Part shown: in pieces, positions 1 to 10,800 of the stretch
How the letters are laid out: each line of letters starts with the position of its first letter
Numbering within the stretch: the first letter of the stretch is position 1
Source: a virus
Taxonomy: Duplodnaviria; Heunggongvirae; Uroviricota; Caudoviricetes
Reading direction: 5' to 3' (one strand)
Virus record (IMG/VR): IMGVR_UViG_2913167280_000001
DNA: 33,660 bases
Made by a program: the position numbers and the translations under genes
Notes under the pieces: generated by a model
Seen by the model: the letters and a program-made list of their open reading frames with translations, nothing else
Databases searched by the model: none
What the model was told of the DNA's origin: nothing

Positions 1-132
1 AAAAGTTTGATGCTCAAAGAATTAAACTTCGTAATGAATTACGTGTTCACTCTTGAGACTTGGTATTCATTTATCGTCTTGCGACGTTAAGAATCCGTAT
101 CTTCGAGTGCCCACACAGATTGTCTGATAAAT

Positions 133-145
133 TGTTAAAGAGCAG
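133..145 (-). promoter_or_regulatory. rRNA operon leader boxA antitermination element
   Basis: Minus strand reads TGCTCTTTAACAA, the rrn boxA consensus, downstream of the rrn P2 promoter. The 16S gene is not in the window. Confidence 0.8.
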
Positions 146-183
146 TTGCGACGCGGCTTTCAGCTCAGCGGCGCGGGGTGTGC

Positions 184-211
184 ATAATACGCTTTCCCGC
201 TACAGAGTCAA
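184..211 (-). promoter_or_regulatory. rRNA operon promoter P2
   Basis: Minus strand has -35 TTGACT (206-211) and -10 TATTAT (184-189) with a 16-bp spacer, matching rrn P2 architecture. Confidence 0.8.
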
Positions 212-301
212 GCATTTTTTTGCTTTTCTCTGCCGGAATTCTCAGGAGAATCCCGCTGACCCGGCGGCGTGTTTGCCGTTGTTCCGTGTCAGTGGTGGCG
301 C

Positions 302-352
302 ATTATAGGGAGTTATTCTGAGCTGACAAGAGGAAATTTAAAATAATTTATC
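302..352 (-). promoter_or_regulatory. rRNA operon promoter P1 with upstream AT-rich UP element
   Basis: Minus strand has -35 TTGTCA (324-329) and -10 TATAAT (302-307) with a 16-bp spacer, preceded by an AT-rich tract (AAATTATTTTAAATTTCCTC) typical of the rrn P1 UP element. Confidence 0.85.
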
Positions 353-407
353 GTTCGTTCAATTCTTAAGCAAAACACCTTAAAAACGACCATTTCCGGT
401 TGGAAAT

Positions 408-440
408 TAGACAAAAAGCGAGCCCCGAAGGACTCGCTTG
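408..440 (-). terminator. intrinsic terminator downstream of clpB
   Basis: GC-rich stem of about 9 bp with one mismatch, followed by a T run on the minus strand, directly after the clpB stop at 447-449. Confidence 0.6.
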
Positions 441-446
441 TCTTAT

Positions 447-3020
447 TTACTGGACGGCGACGATCCGGTCTTCATTAACTTCCAGGCGAATAACTTTACC
501 TGGAACCAATTCACCAGACAGTATTTGCTGTGCCAGCGGGTTTTCGATCTGCTGCTGGATAGCACGTTTCAGAGGACGTGCACCATAGACCGGATCGTAA
601 CCGTTCTCGCTCAGCAGTTTCAGCGCCTCGTCAGAAATGTGGATTTCATAACCACGTTCTTCCAGACGTTTGTACAGACGTTTCAACTGAATCTGCGCAA
701 TCGACGCAATGTGCTGTTCACCCAGCGGATGGAAGACCACCACCTCATCAATACGGTTAATAAACTCCGGACGGAAGTTATGGCTTACCACACCGAGCAC
801 CAGCTCTTTCATGTGCGCATAATCCAGTTCACCGAAGCGTTCCTGAATCAAATCGGAACCGAGGTTAGAGGTCATAATGACAACCGTATTACGGAAGTCG
901 ACCGTTCTCCCCTGCCCGTCAGTCAGACGCCCATCATCCAGTACCTGCAACAGAATGTTGAAGACATCCGGATGTGCTTTTTCCACTTCATCCAGCAGGA
1001 TGACGGAATACGGACGACGACGCACCGCTTCGGTCAGGTAGCCACCTTCTTCATAACCGACATATCCCGGAGGCGCACCAACCAGACGAGACACCGAGTG
1101 TTTCTCCATAAACTCGGACATATCGATACGGACCATCGCCTCGTCGCTATCAAACATAAAGTTCGCCAGCGCCTTACAAAGTTCAGTTTTACCCACACCA
1201 GTTGGGCCGAGGAACAGGAATGAACCAATCGGGCGATTTGGATCCGCCAGCCCCGCACGGCTACGACGAATAGCGTTAGATACCGCATCAACCGCTTCGT
1301 TCTGACCAATAACGCGCTGGTGCAGTTCTTGCTCCATACGCAGCAGTTTTTCGCGCTCGCTTTCCATCATGCGAGAAACCGGAATCCCCGTCCAACGCGC
1401 CAGCACTTCAGCAATTTCGGCGTCGGTCACTTTATTACGCAACAGACGCATAGTTTTGCCTTCGAGCTGCGTTGCGGCTTCCAGTTGCTTTTCCAGTTCC
1501 GGGATTTTGCCGTATTGCAGTTCAGACATCCGCGCCAGGTCACCCACACGGCGAGCCTGTTCAATGGCGATTTTCGCCTGCTCCAGTTCCGCTTTAATGG
1601 TCTGTGTACCAGAGAGCGACGCTTTCTCTGCTTTCCACTCTTCTTCTAACTCGGAGTACTGACGTTCTTTGTCGCTCAGTTCTTCGTTGAGCATATCCAG
1701 GCGTTTTTTACTGGCTTCATCAGACTCTTTCATTAACGCCTGTTGTTCCAGTTTGAGCTGGATGATACGACGATCGAGTCGGTCGAGTTCTTCCGGTTTT
1801 GAGTCAATCTGCATACGAATGCTGGATGCTGCTTCATCGATCAGGTCGATGGCTTTATCCGGCAGCTGACGGTCAGCAATGTAGCGATGAGACAATGTCG
1901 CCGCTGCAACAATTGCCGGGTCAGTAATTTGCACATGGTGGTGCAGCTCGTAACGTTCTTTCAGGCCACGCAGAATAGCAATGGTGTCCTCAACAGAAGG
2001 CTCGGCAACAAACACTTTCTGGAAGCGACGTTCCAACGCAGCATCTTTTTCGATGTACTGGCGATATTCGTCCAGCGTCGTAGCACCCACACAGTGCAGT
2101 TCACCACGCGCCAGTGCCGGTTTCAGCATATTCCCGGCGTCCATTGCGCCATCGGCTTTACCTGCGCCGACCATGGTATGTAATTCGTCGATAAACAGGA
2201 TGACGTTGCCTTCCTGTTTGGAGAGATCGTTAAGCACGCCTTTTAAACGTTCTTCAAACTCACCGCGATATTTCGCCCCAGCCACCAGCGCGCCCATATC
2301 CAGCGCCAGTACGCGGCGGCCTTTCAGCCCTTCCGGCACTTCACCATTAATAATACGCTGCGCCAGACCTTCAACGATGGCAGTTTTACCAACACCAGGC
2401 TCACCAATCAGCACCGGGTTATTTTTAGTACGACGTTGCAGTACCTGAATGGTACGGCGAATTTCTTCATCACGACCAATCACCGGATCGAGTTTGCCTT
2501 GTTCGGCTCGTTCGGTAAGGTCGATGGTGTATTTTTTCAAAGCCTGACGTTGGTCTTCAGCTCCTTGATCATTCACGCTTTCACCTCCGCGCATTTGTTC
2601 AATCGCTTGAGTAATGTTGGCGGTAGTCGCCCCTGCTGCTTTCAGGATATCGGCCAGCGTGCCGCGAGACTCAAGTGCCGCCAGAACGAACAGTTCTGAC
2701 GAGATAAAGTTATCACCACGTTTTTGCGCCAGCTTGTCGCAAAGATTAAGAACGCGCACCAGATCCTGTGATGGCTGGACATCGCCACCTGTACCTTCAA
2801 CCTGTGGTAAACGGTTTAATGCCTGAGTGATATCTGTGCGCAACTGGCCAGCATTGATGCCAGCAGATGTTAATAAAGGACTAACCGAACCCCCTTCCTG
2901 ATTCAGCAGGGCGCTCATTAAATGAAGTGGTTCGATGAATTGGTTGTCGTGCCCGAGTGCAAGTGATTGGGCATCGGCAAGAGCAAGCTGGAATTTATTA
3001 GTAAGACGATCCAGACGCAT
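447..3020 (-). CDS. clpB: ClpB disaggregase (AAA+ chaperone), 857 aa
   Basis: Translation begins [18 protein letters not shown] at the ATG at 3018-3020 with a GGAGG Shine-Dalgarno; two Walker A ([16 protein letters not shown]) nucleotide-binding domains. The ORF-track start at 3032 is a non-ATG extension. Confidence 0.97.
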
Positions 3021-3058
3021 AACTCCTCCCATAACGGATCAAAGTTGCTACTGGAGAT

Positions 3059-3087
3059 TAAATGAGGTCATCCCTCAATTATTCAAG
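3059..3087 (-). promoter_or_regulatory. sigma-32 heat-shock promoter for clpB
   Basis: Minus strand reads CTTGAA, then a 14-bp spacer, then CCTCATTTA, a close match to the sigma-32 consensus (CTTGAA / CCCCATNTA), about 40 bp upstream of the clpB ATG. Confidence 0.65.
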
Positions 3088-3149
3088 GTTATTGACCAGA
3101 TTAATGTGAAAAGAAAATCACGCGTACCGGATCGTCTTGATTCTTTAGG

Positions 3150-3881
3150 TTATATCAGCCAAATGAAACTTGCCATACGACCGGTGATCTTGTCGCGACG
3201 ATAAGAGAAGAAAGTCTCATTTTCCGTATATGTACAACGGTCGCCGCCGAAAATTTGCTCAACACCAACGCTCGCCAGACGCTGTCGGGCAAGCTGATAA
3301 ATATCCGCCAGATACTTATCACCATGCTGAATGAAAGCTGTACTCGCGTTGGCGTCTACTTCCATAAACGCCTCGCGAACCTCCGGCCCCACTTCAAACG
3401 CGCGTGGACCGATTGCCGGCCCCAACCAGGTAAGAATGTTTTCGGGCTTATCGGCAAAGCAGGAAACCGTCTCTTCCAGCACGCCTGCGCACAGTCCACG
3501 CCAGCCAGCATGGGCAGCCGCGACTTCCGTTCCTGCCCGATTGCAAAACAGCACAGGCAGGCAATCGGCTGTCATTACGGCACAAACCGTGCCGGGTGTG
3601 TTGCTATACGAGGCATCCGCCCGTTTTGAGGTATAAGGTTCGCCAGTAAGCTTAAGCACATCTTTACCGTGTACCTGCTCAAGCCAGACCGGTTTTGAAG
3701 GCAAATTACCCGCAGCAAAAAGCCGCTTGCGATTTTCCTCGACGTGCTCCGGGTTATCACCACAATGAGCACCGAGGTTGAGCGAGTCGTAGGGCGGCAA
3801 GCTCACGCCGCCGACACGGGTAGAGCTACAGGCCGCAACACCTTTTGGCAGCGGCCACTGCGGGACAATCAGCTTACTCAT
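3150..3881 (-). CDS. pgeF: YfiH/PgeF family protein, 243 aa
   Basis: Full-length ORF in the conserved clpB-yfiH-rluD context; 4-nt overlap with the rluD stop. Confidence 0.85.
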   Translation of the reverse strand: MSKLIVPQWPLPKGVAACSSTRVGGVSLPPYDSLNLGAHCGDNPEHVEENRKRLFAAGNLPSKPVWLEQVHGKDVLKLTGEPYTSKRADASYSNTPGTVCAVMTADCLPVLFCNRAGTEVAAAHAGWRGLCAGVLEETVSCFADKPENILTWLGPAIGPRAFEVGPEVREAFMEVDANASTAFIQHGDKYLADIYQLARQRLASVGVEQIFGGDRCTYTENETFFSYRRDKITGRMASFIWLI

Positions 3882-4858
3882 AACCAGTCCACTTCATCCT
3901 TATGCTCTTCGAAATCGGCGCGCATCACCTCAATCAGCTCCACCATATCTTGTGGAATAGGCGCATGCCATTCCATTTCAATGCCGGAGATCGGGTGATA
4001 AAGACGCAGCATGGTTGCATGAAGCGCCTGACGATCAAACTTACGCAGCGTGGAGATAAACGCTTCCGAAGCACCTTTTGGCGGACGCGGACGGCCACCA
4101 TAAACCGGATCGCCCACCAGCGGATGGGTTATATGGGCCATATGCACGCGGATCTGGTGCGTACGTCCAGTTTCCAGACGCAGCCGCAGACGCGTGTGCA
4201 CACGGAAGTGTTCCATAATGCGATAGTGAGTGACCGCCGGTTTGCCCATCGGATGCACCGCCATATGAGTTCGTTTGGTCGGATGGCGACTGATTGGCTC
4301 GTCCACCGTGCCACCAGCAGTCATATGACCAATTGCTACCGCTTCATACTCACGAGTAATTTCACGTCGTTGCAGAGATTCCACCAGGCGCGTCTGGGCT
4401 GGAACGGTTTTTGCCACAACCATGAGGCCAGTGGTGTCTTTATCCAGACGATGGACAATACCCGCACGCGGTACATCGGCAATGGGCGGATAGTAATGAA
4501 GCAACGCATTCAATACCGTGCCATCCGGGTTACCCGCGCCAGGATGTACCACCAGGTCGCGCGGTTTATTAATGACGATAATGTCTTCATCTTCATAGAC
4601 GATATCCAGCGGGATATCCTGCGGTTCAAAACGCGCTTCTTCTTCAATCTCGGCGTTGATGGCCACCAGCTCGCCACCTAATACTTTTTCTTTCGGCTTA
4701 TCACAAACTTTGCCGTTAACCAGCACGCGCTGGTTGAGGATCCATTCTTTTATTCGCGAACGTGAATAATCCGGGAACATTTCGGCTAAAGCCTGATCTA
4801 AGCGTTGACCGAGTTGGTTTTCGGACACTGTTGCAGTGAGTTCTACTCGTTGTGCCAT
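3878..4858 (-). CDS. rluD: 23S rRNA pseudouridine synthase RluD, 326 aa
   Basis: RluA-family catalytic motif HRLDKDTTG preceded by an S4-like N-terminal region; divergent from bamD as in E. coli. Confidence 0.93.
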   Translation of the reverse strand: MAQRVELTATVSENQLGQRLDQALAEMFPDYSRSRIKEWILNQRVLVNGKVCDKPKEKVLGGELVAINAEIEEEARFEPQDIPLDIVYEDEDIIVINKPRDLVVHPGAGNPDGTVLNALLHYYPPIADVPRAGIVHRLDKDTTGLMVVAKTVPAQTRLVESLQRREITREYEAVAIGHMTAGGTVDEPISRHPTKRTHMAVHPMGKPAVTHYRIMEHFRVHTRLRLRLETGRTHQIRVHMAHITHPLVGDPVYGGRPRPPKGASEAFISTLRKFDRQALHATMLRLYHPISGIEMEWHAPIPQDMVELIEVMRADFEEHKDEVDWL

Positions 4859-4992
4859 ATATACTGCTTCTTCGTTTATCGTTGGGGTTTTACGGCTTTG
4901 CCGTTTAATATAGTGTGCTATTGTAGCTGGTCTTAACCGGGAGCAGGAACAGAGAATCTCCCGTATTACATTTTGAGGAAAGTCAAAACGTC

Positions 4993-5730
4993 ATGACGCG
5001 CATGAAATATCTGGTGGCAGCCGCCACACTAAGCCTGTTTTTGGCGGGTTGCTCGGGGTCAAAGGAAGAAGTACCTGATAATCCGCCAAATGAAATTTAC
5101 GCGACTGCACAACAAAAGCTGCAGGACGGTAACTGGAGACAGGCAATAACGCAACTGGAAGCGTTAGATAATCGCTATCCGTTTGGTCCGTATTCGCAGC
5201 AGGTGCAGCTGGATCTCATCTACGCCTACTATAAAAACGCCGATCTGCCGTTAGCACAGGCTGCCATCGATCGTTTTATTCGCCTCAACCCGACCCATCC
5301 GAATATCGATTATGTCATGTACATGCGTGGCCTGACCAATATGGCGCTGGATGACAGTGCGCTGCAAGGGTTCTTTGGCGTTGACCGTAGCGATCGCGAT
5401 CCTCAACATGCTCGAGCTGCGTTTAGTGACTTTTCCAAACTGGTGCGCGGCTATCCAAACAGCCAGTACACCACTGATGCAACCAAACGTCTGGTGTTCC
5501 TGAAAGATCGTCTGGCGAAATATGAATACTCCGTTGCAGAGTACTACACCGAACGTGGCGCATGGGTTGCCGTCGTCAACCGCGTCGAAGGCATGCTGCG
5601 CGACTACCCGGATACCCAGGCTACGCGTGATGCGCTGCCGCTGATGGAAAATGCTTACCGCCAGATGCAGATGAACGCTCAGGCTGAAAAAGTCGCGAAA
5701 ATTATTGCCGCTAACAGCAGCAACACTTAA
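4993..5730 (+). CDS. bamD: outer membrane protein assembly factor BamD (lipoprotein), 245 aa
   Basis: Signal peptide ending in a lipobox (LFLAGCSG); full-length match to remembered E. coli BamD. Confidence 0.95.
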
Positions 5731-5748
5731 CAGGTGTGATATACGCAA

Positions 5749-5777
5749 AACGGCAGCCCTGGAGCTGTCGTTTTTTT
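5749..5777 (+). terminator. intrinsic terminator after bamD
   Basis: Stem AACGGCAGC / GCTGTCGTT followed by a run of 7 T. Confidence 0.7.
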
Positions 5778-5946
5778 ATTCGATTTGAACGCTAACTAAA
5801 GCGATTCAGTCGCGACTGATCCTATCAAATATGGCTCGCTTTGAGACATTCCTCAAGTAAAAAAACACCTCTTCCTGCGATTTCTCACAAAAAAACTTCG
5901 TTGACAAAAAGTGACAAAATTATGAGATTTTCATCACACATTTTGA

Positions 5947-6342
<396 letters not shown>

Positions 6343-6365
6343 TCCTTTATATTGAGTGTATCGCC

Positions 6366-6389
6366 AACGCGCCTTCGGGCGCGTTTTTT
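6366..6389 (+). terminator. intrinsic terminator after raiA
   Basis: Perfect 8-bp stem AACGCGCC / GGCGCGTT with a TTCG loop and a T run. Confidence 0.85.
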
Positions 6390-6465
6390 GTAAAGCTAAC
6401 AAATTGTTTCTATTAGCTTATTTCTTATAAACATCCACAAACTGTCCACATCAGTAATGATATAC

Positions 6466-6490
6466 AAGCCCGCAAAAAAAATGCGGGCTT
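6466..6490. terminator. hairpin downstream of the methyltransferase gene (possible bidirectional terminator)
   Basis: Perfect 9-bp stem AAGCCCGCA / TGCGGGCTT with an A7 loop, 4 nt after the methyltransferase stop; flanking sequence is only moderately T-rich. Confidence 0.4.
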
Positions 6491-6494
6491 TGTC

Positions 6495-7301
6495 TTATGT
6501 AGCCGAAATGGTTGTGGTGATGGTCCCCCGAAGCCGCTGCGCAGCTACCTCAAAATAATGATCACTGGTTTCTATACCAATAAATTTTCGCCCTGCTTTC
6601 AGTGCAGCCACACCCGTTGTCCCTGACCCCATAAAAGGATCAAGGACTGTTCCGCCACTATTCGCAGTTCTGACCAGTTCTGCCATAAGTTCTTCTGGTT
6701 TTCCGGTCGGGTGCATTTTCTTTGATGGGATAACCGGGAACGTCATGCAGCCGTCGAACGGTCCCGAAGGCGATTTATCTAAATGGCCTTTACTGCCCCA
6801 GACGATGTATTCGCACTGATGCCGGAAATACCCCGTATGGGGTGTTCGTGACCCCCTTCCTTTGTTCCACGCAATGATGCCGCGCCATGTGAAACCACTG
6901 GCCTGAAATGCATCAGTTAAAGCTGGCAGTTGTCGCCAGTCAGTAAATACCAGGGCATAACCGCCCGGCCTGACTGCGCGGTGTGCCTGTGCCATCCATA
7001 ATTGTGTCCAGTAAGCCCACGAACGGGCATCCATGTTTTCACCCGCAAACCCATCAAAGCGATGAAGGCTCTCGCCGTTCAGATATTTTGCGTGGCTGCC
7101 CTGGTTGGTGCGTCCGGCCTTGTGTGTCGCGCCCGAACTGTAAGGCGGGTCAGTGATTAAGGCATCAATACTTTCTGGCTCAATCAGCGGCAATATTTCC
7201 AGCGCATTCCCACGACAGAGCGTGGCATTGTCAGTCTGATAAACCTTAGTGTGTTCCGGTGTATGTGCTGGTTGGTGCTGGATTGTGATCCCCACGGTCA
7301 T
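6495..7301 (-). CDS. beta-class DNA methyltransferase (N6-adenine or N4-cytosine), 268 aa
   Basis: DPPY catalytic motif at residues 51-54 lies N-terminal to the AdoMet-binding motif DPFMGSGTT (beta-class order). ATG at 7299-7301 with a GAGGAG Shine-Dalgarno. Confidence 0.85.
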   Translation of the reverse strand: MTVGITIQHQPAHTPEHTKVYQTDNATLCRGNALEILPLIEPESIDALITDPPYSSGATHKAGRTNQGSHAKYLNGESLHRFDGFAGENMDARSWAYWTQLWMAQAHRAVRPGGYALVFTDWRQLPALTDAFQASGFTWRGIIAWNKGRGSRTPHTGYFRHQCEYIVWGSKGHLDKSPSGPFDGCMTFPVIPSKKMHPTGKPEELMAELVRTANSGGTVLDPFMGSGTTGVAALKAGRKFIGIETSDHYFEVAAQRLRGTITTTISAT

Positions 7302-7443
7302 AACTCCTCATGTGTGTGGGGTGCTCGATGGCTCTCGTTATCTGGTTAAGTGTTTTGCAGCGCGGACATTTTATTTCAATGTAGTGAAATGAGGCGCGGG
7401 CAAGTAGTTTGTTGCAATTTTTGCATCGTACATTTTGCGTCAT
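7246..7443 (-). CDS. com: Com-like zinc-finger protein (Mu com family), about 65 aa
   Basis: Sequence MTQNVRCKNCNKLL...IEIKCPRCK carries the Cys4 pattern remembered from Mu Com (RCKNCNKLL...IEIRCPRCK). It overlaps the first 56 nt of the downstream methyltransferase gene. ATG at 7441-7443; the track start at 7452 is GTG. Confidence 0.75.
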   Translation of the reverse strand: MTQNVRCKNCNKLLARASFHYIEIKCPRCKTLNQITRAIEHPTHMRSYDRGDHNPAPTSTYTGTH

Positions 7444-7488
7444 TTGCGGCACCTCTTGTGTGGTTACTGCTGCCGATATGATAACAAA

Positions 7489-7526
7489 TTGATCGCTTTT
7501 ATCGATCGGTTTTATATTATCGATCT
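7489..7526. promoter_or_regulatory. cluster of three GATC (Dam) sites upstream of com
   Basis: GATC at 7491, 7504 and 7522, within 35 bp and 48-82 bp upstream of the com ATG, in the divergent intergenic region. Confidence 0.6.
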
Positions 7527-7982
7527 GTGTTTTCTATTTTGTTCATGGGGCTGTTTGGCCTCACTTGTGCTGTAGTTTTAATGCGGAGGCTTCAAGTGCA
7601 ATATTTAAAGGGAACACCATTACATCAGTCCCGATTTGCAAGTGTCAGGATTACATGTCCTTCAGAGTTTTCCTCTTCAATAGAGGAGTATTTTCAAAAT
7701 AATGGATTTGATATAGGTCGTGTGACTTGCTTCTCTGCGAATGCACCCGATATGCTTAGTGTTATGTTCGAATTGCTCTCACGGGCGAAAAAATTTGCAG
7801 GGGTTATTATGGGGTTGTTAAACAGGAATGATGTTGAAGTTGAGCTACACCTTTGTACCAGAGATGATGAGCCTAAAACTGCAAAGCTCAAATTAAGAAA
7901 CCTCAAAGATGTTGATGCGTGTGAGCGCCTGATTGATAAACTGGCTACTGTGGTAATAACGTCAAAGAAAAATGAAGAATAA
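7527..7982 (+). CDS. hypothetical protein, AT-rich accessory gene (start uncertain)
   Basis: ORF clearly lower in GC than its flanks, divergent from com. The track start is GTG; a GTG at 7596 preceded by GGAGG is another candidate start. No recognisable motif. Confidence 0.5.
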   Translation: MFSILFMGLFGLTCAVVLMRRLQVQYLKGTPLHQSRFASVRITCPSEFSSSIEEYFQNNGFDIGRVTCFSANAPDMLSVMFELLSRAKKFAGVIMGLLNRNDVEVELHLCTRDDEPKTAKLKLRNLKDVDACERLIDKLATVVITSKKNEE

Positions 7983-8014
7983 TCGGTAAGCCAACCACCC
8001 TCTCTGGAAATAAA

Positions 8015-8043
8015 AAGCCCGCGACTAATCCTGCGGGCTTTTT
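8015..8043. terminator. bidirectional intrinsic terminator
   Basis: Perfect 8-bp stem AAGCCCGC / GCGGGCTT flanked by an A5 run upstream and a T5 run downstream, 30 nt after the stop of the 7527-7982 ORF. Confidence 0.75.
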
Positions 8044-8536
8044 GCATTCAGGTTTGCGAGATAGGGTGCCTTATCGACCTTAACCCTGGCAACCGATTGA
8101 CGGGGGATTGCTCCCCCGTCGCGGTTTCCTTACTGCTTACACTGTAAGAACGCCGCAAACTCCGCTCCCCAGAAGCTCATCCGTATCTCACACAGCGAAC
8201 CGTGTAGCATCCAGATGATGAGGATTGCCGTCACGCAGAACGTGATGGCTATAAGCGATTTTTGCGACATAGCACTTGCTCCTTTTTTTGCAAAGGCGCT
8301 AAGCTCTTGCCCGCTTATTGATTACGTTGTGAAACGCCCAGAGTTGAACATAAGGTTTAGTTGGGCCTTTTTACATCTGGCCTTCGTGTTTGCTGTCCAG
8401 CCATCAGTCGAAAGGCGTCCGCGTGAATTCTAGCCTGCTTTTTTTTCTTGCTTCAATACGTTGACTAATTTCAACACTCTGTTGTGCATATCCTGAACGC
8501 AGACATTATTCAGTCACGCATTTGATACATGCTTCC

Positions 8537-8561
8537 GCCGGCGTTCGCGCCGGTTTTTTTT
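8537..8561 (+). terminator. orphan intrinsic terminator inside an ORF-poor region
   Basis: GC stem CCGGCG / CGCCGG followed by 8 T; no convincing protein-coding gene upstream. Confidence 0.55.
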
Positions 8562-8941
8562 CGTCCTGTTGTTGCGTAGATCGTCATGTGCGATCGAGGC
8601 GCGGCATTGATCCTTTTTTCAGTTTAATTTCGACTCTCAATTTTACGCAGGCCGCGCCGCGTCTGGCTTCGTTGTTTGACGATTTTTCTATGCGATCCTT
8701 TCGCGATCGTGTCTCGCCCCACGCAAAGCATGAAAACTCTTTTAATATCATGCGGTTTCGTTGACCCCGCCATTTATGGGATCGTAAAAAACTCTCTGAA
8801 AACTGAAAAAAATTTCAAAGCGTGAAATTTCAGATCTTCGCTTTTCCCTCAGTTGCTGCGCGGGCTGGCTGTCATTTTTGCACGGCAGAAAACTGAAAAA
8901 CTGTTTCGACACAAAACCCGCGGGTTGGAGGGGGTAGCGCG

Positions 8942-8986
8942 GTTTACGTCACCTCACGCTTTACGTCACACCGTTTACGTGGTGTG
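8942..8986. repeat. iteron-like direct repeats and an inverted repeat
   Basis: TTTACGTCAC at 8943-8952 and 8960-8969, TTTACGTGGT at 8974-8983; inverted repeat CACACC-N8-GGTGTG at 8967-8986. Confidence 0.6.
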
Positions 8987-9038
8987 CGCATACAGCGCCG
9001 GAATGGCACGCAGAACGCATTAATCAGGTGGCAGATAT

Positions 9039-9064
9039 GAAAACGCACGACCGGAGCCGTGCGT
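9039..9064 (-). terminator. putative terminator at the end of the tail operon
   Basis: Stem ACGCACG / CGTGCGT followed on the minus strand by 4 T, about 40 nt after the stop of the last tail gene. Confidence 0.4.
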
Positions 9065-9102
9065 TGCGTGATGGGCGTTTATGGGGGTTTTATGCCCGGT
9101 GA

Positions 9103-10800
9103 TCAGGCGATAAGGTCACCGTATTTTTCGCGCAGGCTCGTAGCCTGTTTGGCGTCTGCGGCAAGTTCGCTGCTGTTTGTTGGTGCGCCGGTGTTGCTGT
9201 GGGTGTGGTTTGCAGTGTGTGTGGCCAGCAACTGAACCAGATCCAGAATATCAATCAACAACGTCAGCAGATTAAGTCCGGATTTTTCCCGTGAGCCACC
9301 GCGACCAATAAATACTGTCGGGGCTGTAAACTCCAGACCGCCGTCCGCCCGGCATGTTCTGCGGCCTCCCACGTTTTCAGTAAGGTCGCGCTCAATCGTG
9401 GATGTCGCCCCTTTGAGTTTAGTCAGCAAATCCTGCGCTACCATCTGGATATGCTCACCGGCTGCGATCGCATAATGACCAGTAGTAATGTGTTCTGTCT
9501 GGCCTGTCATCAGCTTGCTGGTTCCCAGAACGCTGGTTATGTCGTTTGCCTGTACTGTTGTTGTTCTGGTTGTTGTTGTGCGTTCTTCCTGATCGCTGTT
9601 AATGGTTCGCCTGGCTGAATGCTCCCTGATTTGCTGATCGGTTTCTCTGTGCCAGCTTCCGTCAGTCGTGACACGCTGAAACACTTCTGCGCGCTGTTGC
9701 TGCAGCTGTTCGCCGGGCTTTACATCAGGCAGGTTATGGCCAGCGGGTAAGATTTGCCTGATGACAGGTTTATCCGGTCGTCCTTCAATGTTGGATATTT
9801 CCACGATGGTGCCAGCCGGCGGGTAGGCAAAACATCCCGCCTCACTGCCAGCCATGGGGACGGGGAGCGGTACTGCCGGGTAAACGGGCGTATCGCTTTT
9901 ATCGTTGCCGTTCTCATCAAGCAACTGCACATCGACGGCGTAGCGTGGGCGGAAACTGTCGGCCACATCGCCCAGGGTGGCGGGCTCCGTTGGTGCAATG
10001 ACGCGCGCCAGCCGGGTATGTAGCGTACCGCTGGCCAGTTCCGGGAACTGTGTTTCCATTTGTCTGCGTAATGGTGATTTGGAAACAGGGCTGCCCGTGG
10101 CGGTAAGGCGCTCCCATGTCAGGGTCATTTTCTCGTTGTTGAGGGCTACACGGGTAATGCGCCCGGCTGGAAGGTTCACGCCCGGTCGCACAGTTTCCAT
10201 AAACATGATGTCGATGCTGTTTCCGCCGCTTTGCCCGAGTGTGTACTGTTGCGGAATATCCGGCATTGTAATGCTGGCAAATCGTGAATCAGCTGCACTT
10301 CCCACAAATACAGAACCGTCCGGCATAGGGTGCCAGACGTAATCGTTGATACTGAATGCTCGCCCCAGTTGGCTGAGCAGCTGTGCTCCGCTGCCGCTGT
10401 GGGTGATGTAGGGAGTTGGTATACTGGCATAATCCGCATCCGGAGTGATAAAAACGATACCGCTTTGTCGCCCCAGATTATCGAGTACCCCCCGCAACGT
10501 CGGGTGTTGCATGGAGCAAGGGAAATCAAAATCCAGCACAGCAGCCGCTTCACGAATAAAAAGGCGACGTGAGCCATTTTCAGCAGGTTGATCGCGCTCA
10601 ATGTAGCCGGAGAAATAGCGCCATGCTTCACCGTCACGGCCGAGATCAATTTGTACCATTGCGCCGGCAAGGCTGTGTTCGGGTGACAGATTGTTAACAG
10701 AAATGAAGCCACGACCGGCAGCATTCAGGGTAAGAACAAGGCTTATATCGGCAATTTCCACCCATTCGCCATTAATCATGCAGCGTTGTATCAATTTCAT
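9103..10800 (-). CDS. tail spike protein with a gpV/gp5-type OB-fold domain and an N-terminal extension (possible hub-spike fusion), 565 aa
   Basis: Residues about 306-350 (PVPMAGSEAGCFAYPPAGTIVEISNIEGRPDKPVIRQIL) resemble the conserved spike OB-fold motif; C-terminal HTANHTHS resembles the histidine tip motif of P2 gpV. Last gene of the tail operon, ATGA-coupled to the upstream gene. Confidence 0.6.
   Translation of the reverse strand: MKLIQRCMINGEWVEIADISLVLTLNAAGRGFISVNNLSPEHSLAGAMVQIDLGRDGEAWRYFSGYIERDQPAENGSRRLFIREAAAVLDFDFPCSMQHPTLRGVLDNLGRQSGIVFITPDADYASIPTPYITHSGSGAQLLSQLGRAFSINDYVWHPMPDGSVFVGSAADSRFASITMPDIPQQYTLGQSGGNSIDIMFMETVRPGVNLPAGRITRVALNNEKMTLTWERLTATGSPVSKSPLRRQMETQFPELASGTLHTRLARVIAPTEPATLGDVADSFRPRYAVDVQLLDENGNDKSDTPVYPAVPLPVPMAGSEAGCFAYPPAGTIVEISNIEGRPDKPVIRQILPAGHNLPDVKPGEQLQQQRAEVFQRVTTDGSWHRETDQQIREHSARRTINSDQEERTTTTRTTTVQANDITSVLGTSKLMTGQTEHITTGHYAIAAGEHIQMVAQDLLTKLKGATSTIERDLTENVGGRRTCRADGGLEFTAPTVFIGRGGSREKSGLNLLTLLIDILDLVQLLATHTANHTHSNTGAPTNSSELAADAKQATSLREKYGDLIA

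Follow-up and report, generated by a model that had tools for sequence, protein, structure and literature searches.

A candidate Dam/OxyR-gated, Com-activated orphan DNA methyltransferase at the end of a P2-family Escherichia coli prophage

We analysed a stretch of 33,660 nucleotides recorded as IMGVR_UViG_2913167280_000001 (the window, by which we mean this stretch at its full length), in which a com gene overlaps the gene of a DNA methyltransferase at the end of an Escherichia coli prophage. Our preferred reading, to which we give a probability of roughly 0.6, is that the two genes belong to a portable cassette homologous to com-mom of phage Mu, in which transcription would be gated by Dam and OxyR and translation of an orphan anti-restriction methyltransferase would be activated by Com. 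This reading is carried by the identity of the two proteins, by a hairpin around the methyltransferase start with a Com-operator-like motif beside it, and by a triad of GATC sites within an OxyR-consensus-like sequence upstream of com. The two genes are the following.

6495..7301, minus strand: orphan beta-class DNA methyltransferase (PF01555, PHROG 67), 268 amino acids from AUG 7301, probably 266 amino acids from GUG 7295.
7246..7443, minus strand: com, encoding a Com-family CCCC zinc-ribbon protein of 65 amino acids (PF10122 and PHROG gpCom).

The com gene has an ATG start with a good Shine-Dalgarno sequence (GAGGTG), and its product carries N-terminal zinc-ribbon cysteines at residues 7, 10, 26 and 29. 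The protein matched Pfam PF10122 (Zn_ribbon_Com) with 44.4 bits, for a curated cut-off of 22.9 (E = 1.1e-11), and the PHROG 'gpCom control of modification' at 2.3e-17. When it was aligned with 22 homologues including Mu Com, residues R6, C7, C10, K12, L13, L14, E23, C26, R28, C29 and K30 were invariant. These matches place the 65-amino-acid protein in the Com family. Its product name in RefSeq is 'Com family DNA-binding transcriptional regulator', which is probably misleading given that the characterised Com is an RNA-binding translational activator.

The methyltransferase matched PF01555 (N6_N4_Mtase; E = 2.5e-33) as its only Pfam family, with no Mom domain (PF25680), and matched PHROG 67 (DNA methyltransferase) at 8.7e-82. 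DPPY (motif IV) at residue 51 precedes DPFMGSGTT at residue 221, the motif order of the beta class, and motif I for S-adenosylmethionine is FMGSG at residues 223-227. Its relatives in the PDB, namely DpnA, CcrM, MboIIA, RsrI and PvuII, are all of the beta class; taking the specificity from these solved structures was considered and dropped, since the nearest relative, DpnA (E = 1e-20), is too distant for such a transfer. Because the motif is DPPY, the target base is probably N6-adenine. No endonuclease or other nuclease reading frame adjoins the gene, its neighbours being com and the host gene raiA, and the enzyme is an orphan without a cognate endonuclease. The nearest cluster at 90% identity contains 1486 sequences and has a representative of 266 amino acids. 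A published methylome study of ST131 does not cover this methyltransferase. A preliminary description of this DNA, made from the letters alone, had proposed a Com-type four-cysteine protein coupled to a beta-class methyltransferase instead of Mom, and both proposals were borne out by these profile searches.

The same description had likened the layout of the overlapping pair to that of Mu. Counted from AUG 7301 the overlap is 56 nucleotides; from GUG 7295 it is 50 nucleotides, the same as in Mu to the nucleotide. Three elements lie in or next to this overlap.

7320..7336, minus strand: Com-operator-like RNA motif GAGAGCC-AUC-GAGCACC, which fits the SELEX consensus.
7290..7321, minus strand: predicted translation-inhibition hairpin (TIS-like), burying the Shine-Dalgarno GGAG, AUG 7301 and GUG 7295; fold of -14.3 kcal/mol.
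7304..7309, minus strand: methyltransferase Shine-Dalgarno sequence GAGGAG, read from the sequence, 8 nucleotides from GUG 7295 and only 2 from AUG 7301.

The RNA motif selected by Com in vitro (by SELEX) is bipartite, NGAGNNCC(N)2-3GAGNNCCNN, and the native Mu site is GAAUGCCUGCGAGCAUCCC (PMC6483171). The window mRNA reads cGAGAGCC-AUC-GAGCACCcc at 7336-7320, which is an exact fit to the SELEX motif and agrees with the native Mu site at 14 of 19 positions; this operator-like sequence, GAGAGCCAUCGAGCACC, begins 41 nucleotides upstream of GUG 7295. The hairpin of 7321-7290 follows immediately 3' and has the last two C residues in common with this sequence; its outer stem is CCCCAC/GUGGGG and its inner stem CAUGA/UUAUG, GGAG stands in a loop of 4 nucleotides, and AUG 7301 and the in-frame GUG 7295 are both paired. 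The predicted energy of -14.3 kcal/mol (z = -2.95) was equalled or beaten by 2 of 200 shuffled sequences, and the equivalent Mu hairpin is less stable (-9.0 kcal/mol). Folding the mRNA in search of a Com-binding stem-loop, as had been proposed, thus gave a Com-operator-like motif beside a hairpin sequestering the start codon. The true start of the methyltransferase is probably GUG 7295, because the Shine-Dalgarno sequence is 8 nucleotides from it and 2 from the AUG, and because it is the positional equivalent of the GUG start of Mu mom. The resulting protein of 266 amino acids has the length of the cluster representative.

We compared 80 com loci, taken from one genome per species, and additional ones found in E. 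coli, Salmonella and Yersinia. Most of the 80 have the operator motif in a relaxed form, and across 45 distinct instances of it the 4-bp stem shows covariation. Pair 1 is G-C in 22 of these and A-U in the other 23; at pair 2 there are 14 instances of U-A, 14 of C-G, 7 of G-C and 3 of A-U, the search pattern having left pairs 2 and 3 free of any requirement for complementarity. The (C)CCCAC...GUGGG(G) hairpin is kept in 12 of 12 enterobacterial com loci examined, including Mu, and in all 12 the downstream protein (the payload) starts with Val-Gly from the hairpin GUG; the payloads in question are Mom (PF25680), C5 (PF00145) and PF01555 enzymes. Such a shared, RNA-dictated N-terminus of unrelated enzymes indicates selection on structure, and suggests that cassette exchange takes place at the payload start codon.

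Upstream of com, we examined the GATC sites and the sequence in which they lie.

7492..7528, no strand assigned: OxyR-consensus-like 37-mer holding the GATC triad (GATC at 7491, 7504 and 7522), agreeing at 15 of 20 specified positions.
7478..7486, minus strand: candidate extended -10 element TGtTATCAT for com, from a promoter scan; prediction only.

The three GATCs at 7491, 7504 and 7522 are 48-82 nucleotides upstream of the com ATG, where the preliminary description had placed them. Read toward com, their spacing is 18 and 13, as at Mu mom (18, 13), and that of agn43 is 19 and 13. By itself the cluster is not significant, because about 0.9 GATC triplets within 40 bp or less would be expected by chance (random placement) somewhere in 33.6 kb, and because a second triplet is present at 8579-8609; the whole window has 114 GATCs for 114.7 expected, hence no excess. 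The cluster gains significance because its spacing recurs in independent enterobacterial com loci, because it coincides with the best OxyR-consensus match of the window, and because no cluster of this type was found among about 50 non-enterobacterial com loci. The expectation for a spacing of 18±1 and 13 in the 200 nucleotides upstream of com is about 2e-5 per locus.

The 37-nucleotide OxyR consensus, ATAGNTNNNANCTAT-N7-ATAGNTNNNANCTAT, was scored on both strands over the whole window (about 67,000 positions). The top score, 15/20, fell on the triad at 7492-7528; the runner-up (14/20) was the adjacent register, and the rest of the window scored 13/20 or less. Under the same scoring, two experimentally established Dam-sensitive OxyR sites gave 13/20 (Mu mom) and 14/20 (agn43), and within the 37-mer the GATC offsets are 3-4, 22 and 35 in the window, Mu mom and agn43 alike. 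The resemblance to the Dam sites of Mu mom, which had been remarked on previously, therefore holds for the spacing and for the register of the OxyR consensus. The triplet at 8579-8609 (spacing 13, 17) was considered as a second switch and rejected, as its OxyR-consensus score was below 13/20 and two of its three sites are not kept in a Yersinia relative.

The three-site arrangement (18-19, 13) is found in the window, in Salmonella (locus L009), Yersinia kristensenii (L092), Apirhabdus (L013) and an Enterobacteriaceae locus (L016), and in Mu; L013 and L016 carry Mom payloads. A two-site form with the 13-nucleotide spacing is found in E. coli (L005 and L006), Citrobacter (L011) and Salmonella (L090). 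Among enterobacterial com loci the triad is kept while its spacers diverge: by hand count, the window and the Yersinia copy differ at 6 of 23 spacer positions and at none of the 12 GATC positions. The preliminary description had allowed that the cluster might not be conserved in related prophages, and its presence in Salmonella and Yersinia shows otherwise. The triad was not found at copies of the methyltransferase gene that are without com (L094), and by these comparisons it travels with com. A natural triad-less variant of the module occurs in locus L010 (2400-2503), in which a deletion between GATCGAT repeats leaves one GATC in place of three; the contig is labelled Vagococcus and carries enterobacterial prophage DNA, probably as contamination.

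The candidate extended -10 element is kept as TGnTATCAT in Salmonella (L009) and Yersinia (L092), and in the predicted promoter GATC 7504 overlaps the -35 and GATC 7491 lies within the spacer. A P2 Ogr-type late promoter (TGT-N12-ACA) was sought by eye and set aside, since the match was just 5/6 (TGA-N12-ACA, 7546-7529) and lay outside the conserved module. Taken as a whole, these comparisons of sequences support the proposal of a Dam-sensitive, Com-activated methyltransferase.

Of 5426 complete E. coli genomes, about 171 (about 3%) carry the module with an identity of at least 95%. In most of these (about 160) homology ends at 7528, which is the outer edge of the OxyR-like 37-mer; in the other E. 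coli genomes the module lies between hok/ogr and the attachment (att) junction of classical P2-like prophages, at the sites raiA and flk. We classified by BLAST the 72 distinct proteins encoded downstream of com. They comprise 36 D12 (Dam-like) enzymes, 8 PF01555 enzymes, among which that of the window groups, 7 of the Hia5 type, with which it does not group, 6 Mom, 4 C5 enzymes and 11 others or unclear cases; Mom is thus a minority payload. In two E. coli prophages (L005, 1458-2664; L006, 1754-2645) com, the leader and the upstream region are almost identical, and the two split about 10 nucleotides past the payload GUG, into a C5 cytosine methyltransferase in L005 and Mom, matching PF25680, in L006. 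The pair shows cleanly how one payload can be replaced by another at the start codon.

Copies of the same methyltransferase that are without com were also seen (L094/L095, 2001-2795; L003; L004, 2404-3156). One type is found in P2-like prophages at copA, with 82% protein identity and 20 nucleotides past ogr (e.g. L094); another, of 74% nucleotide identity, lies within the holin/endolysin cassette of a prophage that shares the tail type of the window. Because copies occur with com, after ogr and in a holin/endolysin cassette, the methyltransferase is a mobile gene under at least three control schemes. Two further observations concern com loci elsewhere. Methylophaga thiooxydans DMS010 has at least 12 scaffolds with near-identical com and D12 (Dam-like) loci, several of them at scaffold ends (L021, L027-L030, L033-L039), which may reflect either a transposable (Mu-like) prophage in multiple copies or an artefact of assembly. 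In metagenome-assembled genomes of Margulisiibacteriota and Saganbacteria (L068, 2489-2701, and L081, 2495-2677), a Com-like zinc-ribbon reading frame overlaps the next start by 28 nucleotides; its partner resembles an aspartyl-tRNA synthetase (N-terminus MYR..CGELRKKDVG..), which is unexpected for a Com homologue, and the operator motif was not found at these two loci.

From the gene identities, motifs, fold and conservation described here we infer OxyR binding, Com binding, the timing of expression and a target sequence of the enzyme, and the preferred mechanism would run as follows. A promoter overlapping the GATC triad would drive transcription; unmethylated GATCs would admit OxyR and the promoter would be blocked, while Dam methylation would exclude OxyR, as the site geometry shared with Mu mom and agn43 suggests. 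The bicistronic mRNA would yield Com, with the methyltransferase start, most likely GUG 7295, locked in the stable hairpin. By homology to Mu, Com would bind GAGNNCC-N3-GAGNNCC abutting the 5' arm of the hairpin and open it, allowing translation. The orphan methyltransferase would then modify phage DNA, and incidentally host DNA, and the phage would evade restriction in its next host, in the manner of Mom and the FluMu-type enzymes. A double lock of this kind suggests that uncontrolled expression of the methyltransferase is harmful.

Several points weigh against this interpretation. As to the target base, PF01555 also takes in N4-cytosine enzymes. The promoter is a consensus match only, and the scan gave no more promoter-like sites than shuffled sequence. 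In Mu, Pmom also requires the activator C, and no C-like or Ogr-like activator site was recognised inside the conserved module, with no C-site model used; an unaided extended -10 might make the operon constitutive in a dam+ lysogen, unlike the late-lytic role that we propose. At the RNA level, the window clade has an A.A (or C.A) mismatch at pair 2 of the operator stem, and the minimum-energy fold of the window operator is a different 3-bp stem (-1.7 kcal/mol). Finally, the com reading frame crosses the hairpin, which com-translating ribosomes could open without any binding of Com to RNA.

A broader interpretation, which we regard as possible though rather unlikely, takes the com leader (the triad, com, the operator and the hairpin up to GUG-GGG) as a horizontally exchanged safety switch for DNA-modifying enzymes, which here would be phase-variable and control an enzyme of relaxed specificity. 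In enterobacteria, recombination at GUGGGG may have joined this leader to at least three enzyme families that are unrelated to each other (Mom, C5 and beta-class N6); in total, five enzyme families are found behind com. The combination of the triad in P2-family prophages with an extended -10 that looks independent of an activator could give phase variation like that of agn43, and if this is true the methylomes of lysogens would be heterogeneous. The tight control may also go with a very relaxed specificity, like that of Hia5 or M.EcoGII.

Phase variation can also be considered on its own, as an epigenetic switch in lysogens. Competition of Dam and OxyR after replication would set heritable ON and OFF states, as at agn43, and a fraction of lysogens would make the methyltransferase and have an altered methylome. 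The function would then not be purely late-lytic but would lie in the regulation of host genes or in bet-hedging with respect to restriction. The geometry of the triad fits agn43 (19, 13) as well as it fits Mu, the TGnTATCAT element comes right after the third GATC in the E. coli, Salmonella and Yersinia versions, no C-like or Ogr-like site was recognised in the module, and the edge of a prophage is a typical place for genes expressed in lysogens. However, the promoter is only predicted, a Com/hairpin lock as a second layer sits badly with routine expression, Mu has the same triad and is not phase-variable, and related prophage methyltransferases, M.EcoGI and M.EcoGII among them, stay silent in lysogens (PMC5778455, PMC4659465). 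We consider this alternative unlikely.

Less probable still is that translational coupling alone accounts for the arrangement. Ribosomes translating com would melt the hairpin and reinitiate, Com would not be needed in trans, and the operator-like sequence would be kept only as the code for a conserved A-x-E-H-P-T peptide. In keeping with this, the com reading frame spans the operator and the entire hairpin, the operator stem is mismatched in the window clade, and the operator nucleotides do encode the conserved EHPT peptide. Against it, Mu has the same overlap and Com is still required in trans, according to passages of PMC3299994 and PMC6483171 that cite Wulczyn 1989 and Hattman 1987. Selection acts on the RNA, because the stem covaries over the 45 operator variants although the encoded peptide differs; moreover, loci L060 and L084 keep the operator outside the com reading frame.

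It is very unlikely that the triad works without OxyR, whether by way of SeqA, by methylation acting directly on RNA polymerase at the -35 and spacer, or as a target of the phage methyltransferase itself in a self-activating feedback. Two GATCs do fall on the predicted -35 (7504) and spacer (7491), and a relaxed-specificity adenine methyltransferase would methylate GATC too, as Hia5 does (PMC3299994). Outside the GATCs, however, the sequence likewise fits the OxyR consensus, in the register of two validated sites and with the best score in the window, and the spacers of the different lineages differ where the consensus leaves positions free.

The preferred reading, in which Dam and OxyR gate transcription and Com activates translation, also has to be seen in its genomic setting.

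6389..6494, no strand assigned: left prophage end (attL side); K-12 homology ends at about 6388, and a terminator-like hairpin (6466-6490) lies just past the methyltransferase stop.

Positions 1-6342 of the window are E. coli chromosome, with clpB, yfiH, rluD, bamD and raiA, and homology to K-12 stops at about 6388, immediately past the raiA terminator. From about 6389 on the DNA is that of a prophage whose capsid and terminase module is of the P2 type and whose tail is contractile; for its structural genes, no close relative was found in the phage collection searched. Because the K-12 match ends at about 6388, the methyltransferase is the first prophage gene, and together with com it makes up the first two, both on the minus strand; the earlier placement of the pair at the prophage end beside host DNA is thereby confirmed. 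In Escherichia phage Chuche the hairpin of 6466-6490 is also present, between the methyltransferase gene and int. The divergence of Chuche before 6532 had raised the idea that integration exchanges the C-terminus of the methyltransferase. This was rejected, since K-12 homology ends at about 6388 and 6389-6531 is diverged phage DNA carrying the same hairpin.

On the other side of com, a divergent gene (7596-7982, plus strand) of 128 amino acids with a GTG start belongs to PHROG 14142, of unknown function, and had no match in Pfam or PADLOC. It and com flank a common intergenic region of 150 bp. We rejected it as a part of the module, as it is common to only about 9 genomes and the other 160 or so lose homology at 7528; in addition, the analogous divergent gene in L006 is unrelated to it. 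The com module is adjoined by a Hok/Gef (MokW-like) toxin gene (8130-8270, minus strand), and in several distinct P2-family prophages, integrated at raiA, flk and ihfA-pheT, the trio of hok, com and methyltransferase is found at the att-proximal end. Between hok and a baseplate gene is an 830-bp stretch without an annotated gene (8271-9102), which contains 7 GATCs in 258 bp (8579-8836), (G)ACGTAAA repeats at about 8940-8985 and TTTTCAGTTTTC repeats. Large blocks of it and four GATCs are kept in the Yersinia kristensenii prophage (77% column identity), and it may be a regulatory or origin-like region. An Rfam search of 6200-9300 gave nothing near any gathering score.

The preliminary description implied more novelty than the pair possesses. 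Pairs of Com and a methyltransferase have been published for FluMu, Pnm1, Hia5 and B3 (PMC3299994) and for KS5 (PMC3091744), and the exact pair is already annotated in the 171 or so complete E. coli genomes, being labelled as such in RefSeq and in the record of phage Chuche. In the literature that we searched, where coverage was incomplete and absence is weak evidence, there was no description of a complete Dam/OxyR triad before payloads other than Mom, of the shared GUGGGG junction or of the breadth of payload families. The implication of our findings is that the control circuit of Mu mom is not peculiar to Mu or to Mom, and would move as a unit into P2-family prophages where it fronts ordinary methyltransferases. 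In methylome surveys the enzyme of such a module would look like a silent orphan methyltransferase. With the likely lock known, it could be switched on by supplying Com or by removing the hairpin, in a dam+ or an oxyR- background. The locus would also be a convenient second system for the recognition of RNA by Com and for epigenetic control by Dam and OxyR, and the name that NCBI gives to the com protein conflicts with the experimentally defined activity of Com.

The closest known system is com-mom of Mu. Both have a Com zinc ribbon, a 50-nucleotide overlap with the payload, an operator directly followed by a CCCAC/GUGGG hairpin with the payload GUG inside it, and a GATC triad spaced 18 and 13 with the OxyR consensus in the same register. 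They differ in the payload, which is PF01555 in the window and Mom (PF25680) in Mu, and in the carrier, an integrating P2-family prophage as opposed to a transposable phage. In addition, the triad of the window is 27 nucleotides nearer to com and abuts the putative extended -10, its hairpin is more stable, its operator stem is mismatched, and no C-type activator site was recognised. By sequence, then, the window locus is homologous to the com-mom control region, yet strictly speaking it is no com-mom operon, as the payload is not Mom.

A DNA methyltransferase behind com at the position of mom is known from FluMu (Hin1523), Pnm1 (Nma1821), Hia5 and B3 (ORF47/48), as in the window, and the FluMu-type methyltransferases, non-specific adenine enzymes, are silent in lysogens, presumed to be controlled by Com and presumed to counter restriction (PMC3299994). 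An anti-restriction role has been demonstrated for Mom and suggested for enzymes of the FluMu type (PMC3299994). In contrast to the window, the FluMu/Hia5-type enzymes belong to another family (the Haemophilus influenzae payload L060 has no Pfam match), their loci are without a GATC triad and their carriers are Mu-like.

Nearer in gene content are three phages with the same gene pair, enzyme family and phage family, which are described in gene tables only, with no published regulatory analysis. In the P2-like Burkholderia phage KS5, gp21/gp20 are listed as a 'Com translational regulator' with an overlap into a PF01555 methylase (PMC3091744), and unlike in the window the pair lies between tail-fibre and tail-sheath genes. 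In the P2-like Stenotrophomonas phage Smp131, orf5/orf4 are annotated as Com and a PF01555 methylase, and their neighbour is the portal gene, which is again unlike the window. In phage Chuche the methyltransferase of the pair is 97% and Com 98.5% identical to those of the window.

Two E. coli systems resemble the window in one part each. At agn43 (flu) three GATCs spaced 19 and 13 also lie in an OxyR site beside a -10; there, however, the triad is downstream of the -10, whereas that of the window is upstream, and the site controls an adhesin and has no translational lock. M.EcoGI and M.EcoGII are beta-class, non-specific adenine methyltransferases on E. coli prophages (PMC5778455). A link of M.EcoGII to com was considered and dropped, com being unmentioned in that paper. 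Like the window enzyme, both are beta-class orphans on E. coli prophages, and they differ from it in length, with 349 amino acids as compared with 266-268. In lysogens M.EcoGI and M.EcoGII are silent, and their expression is toxic.

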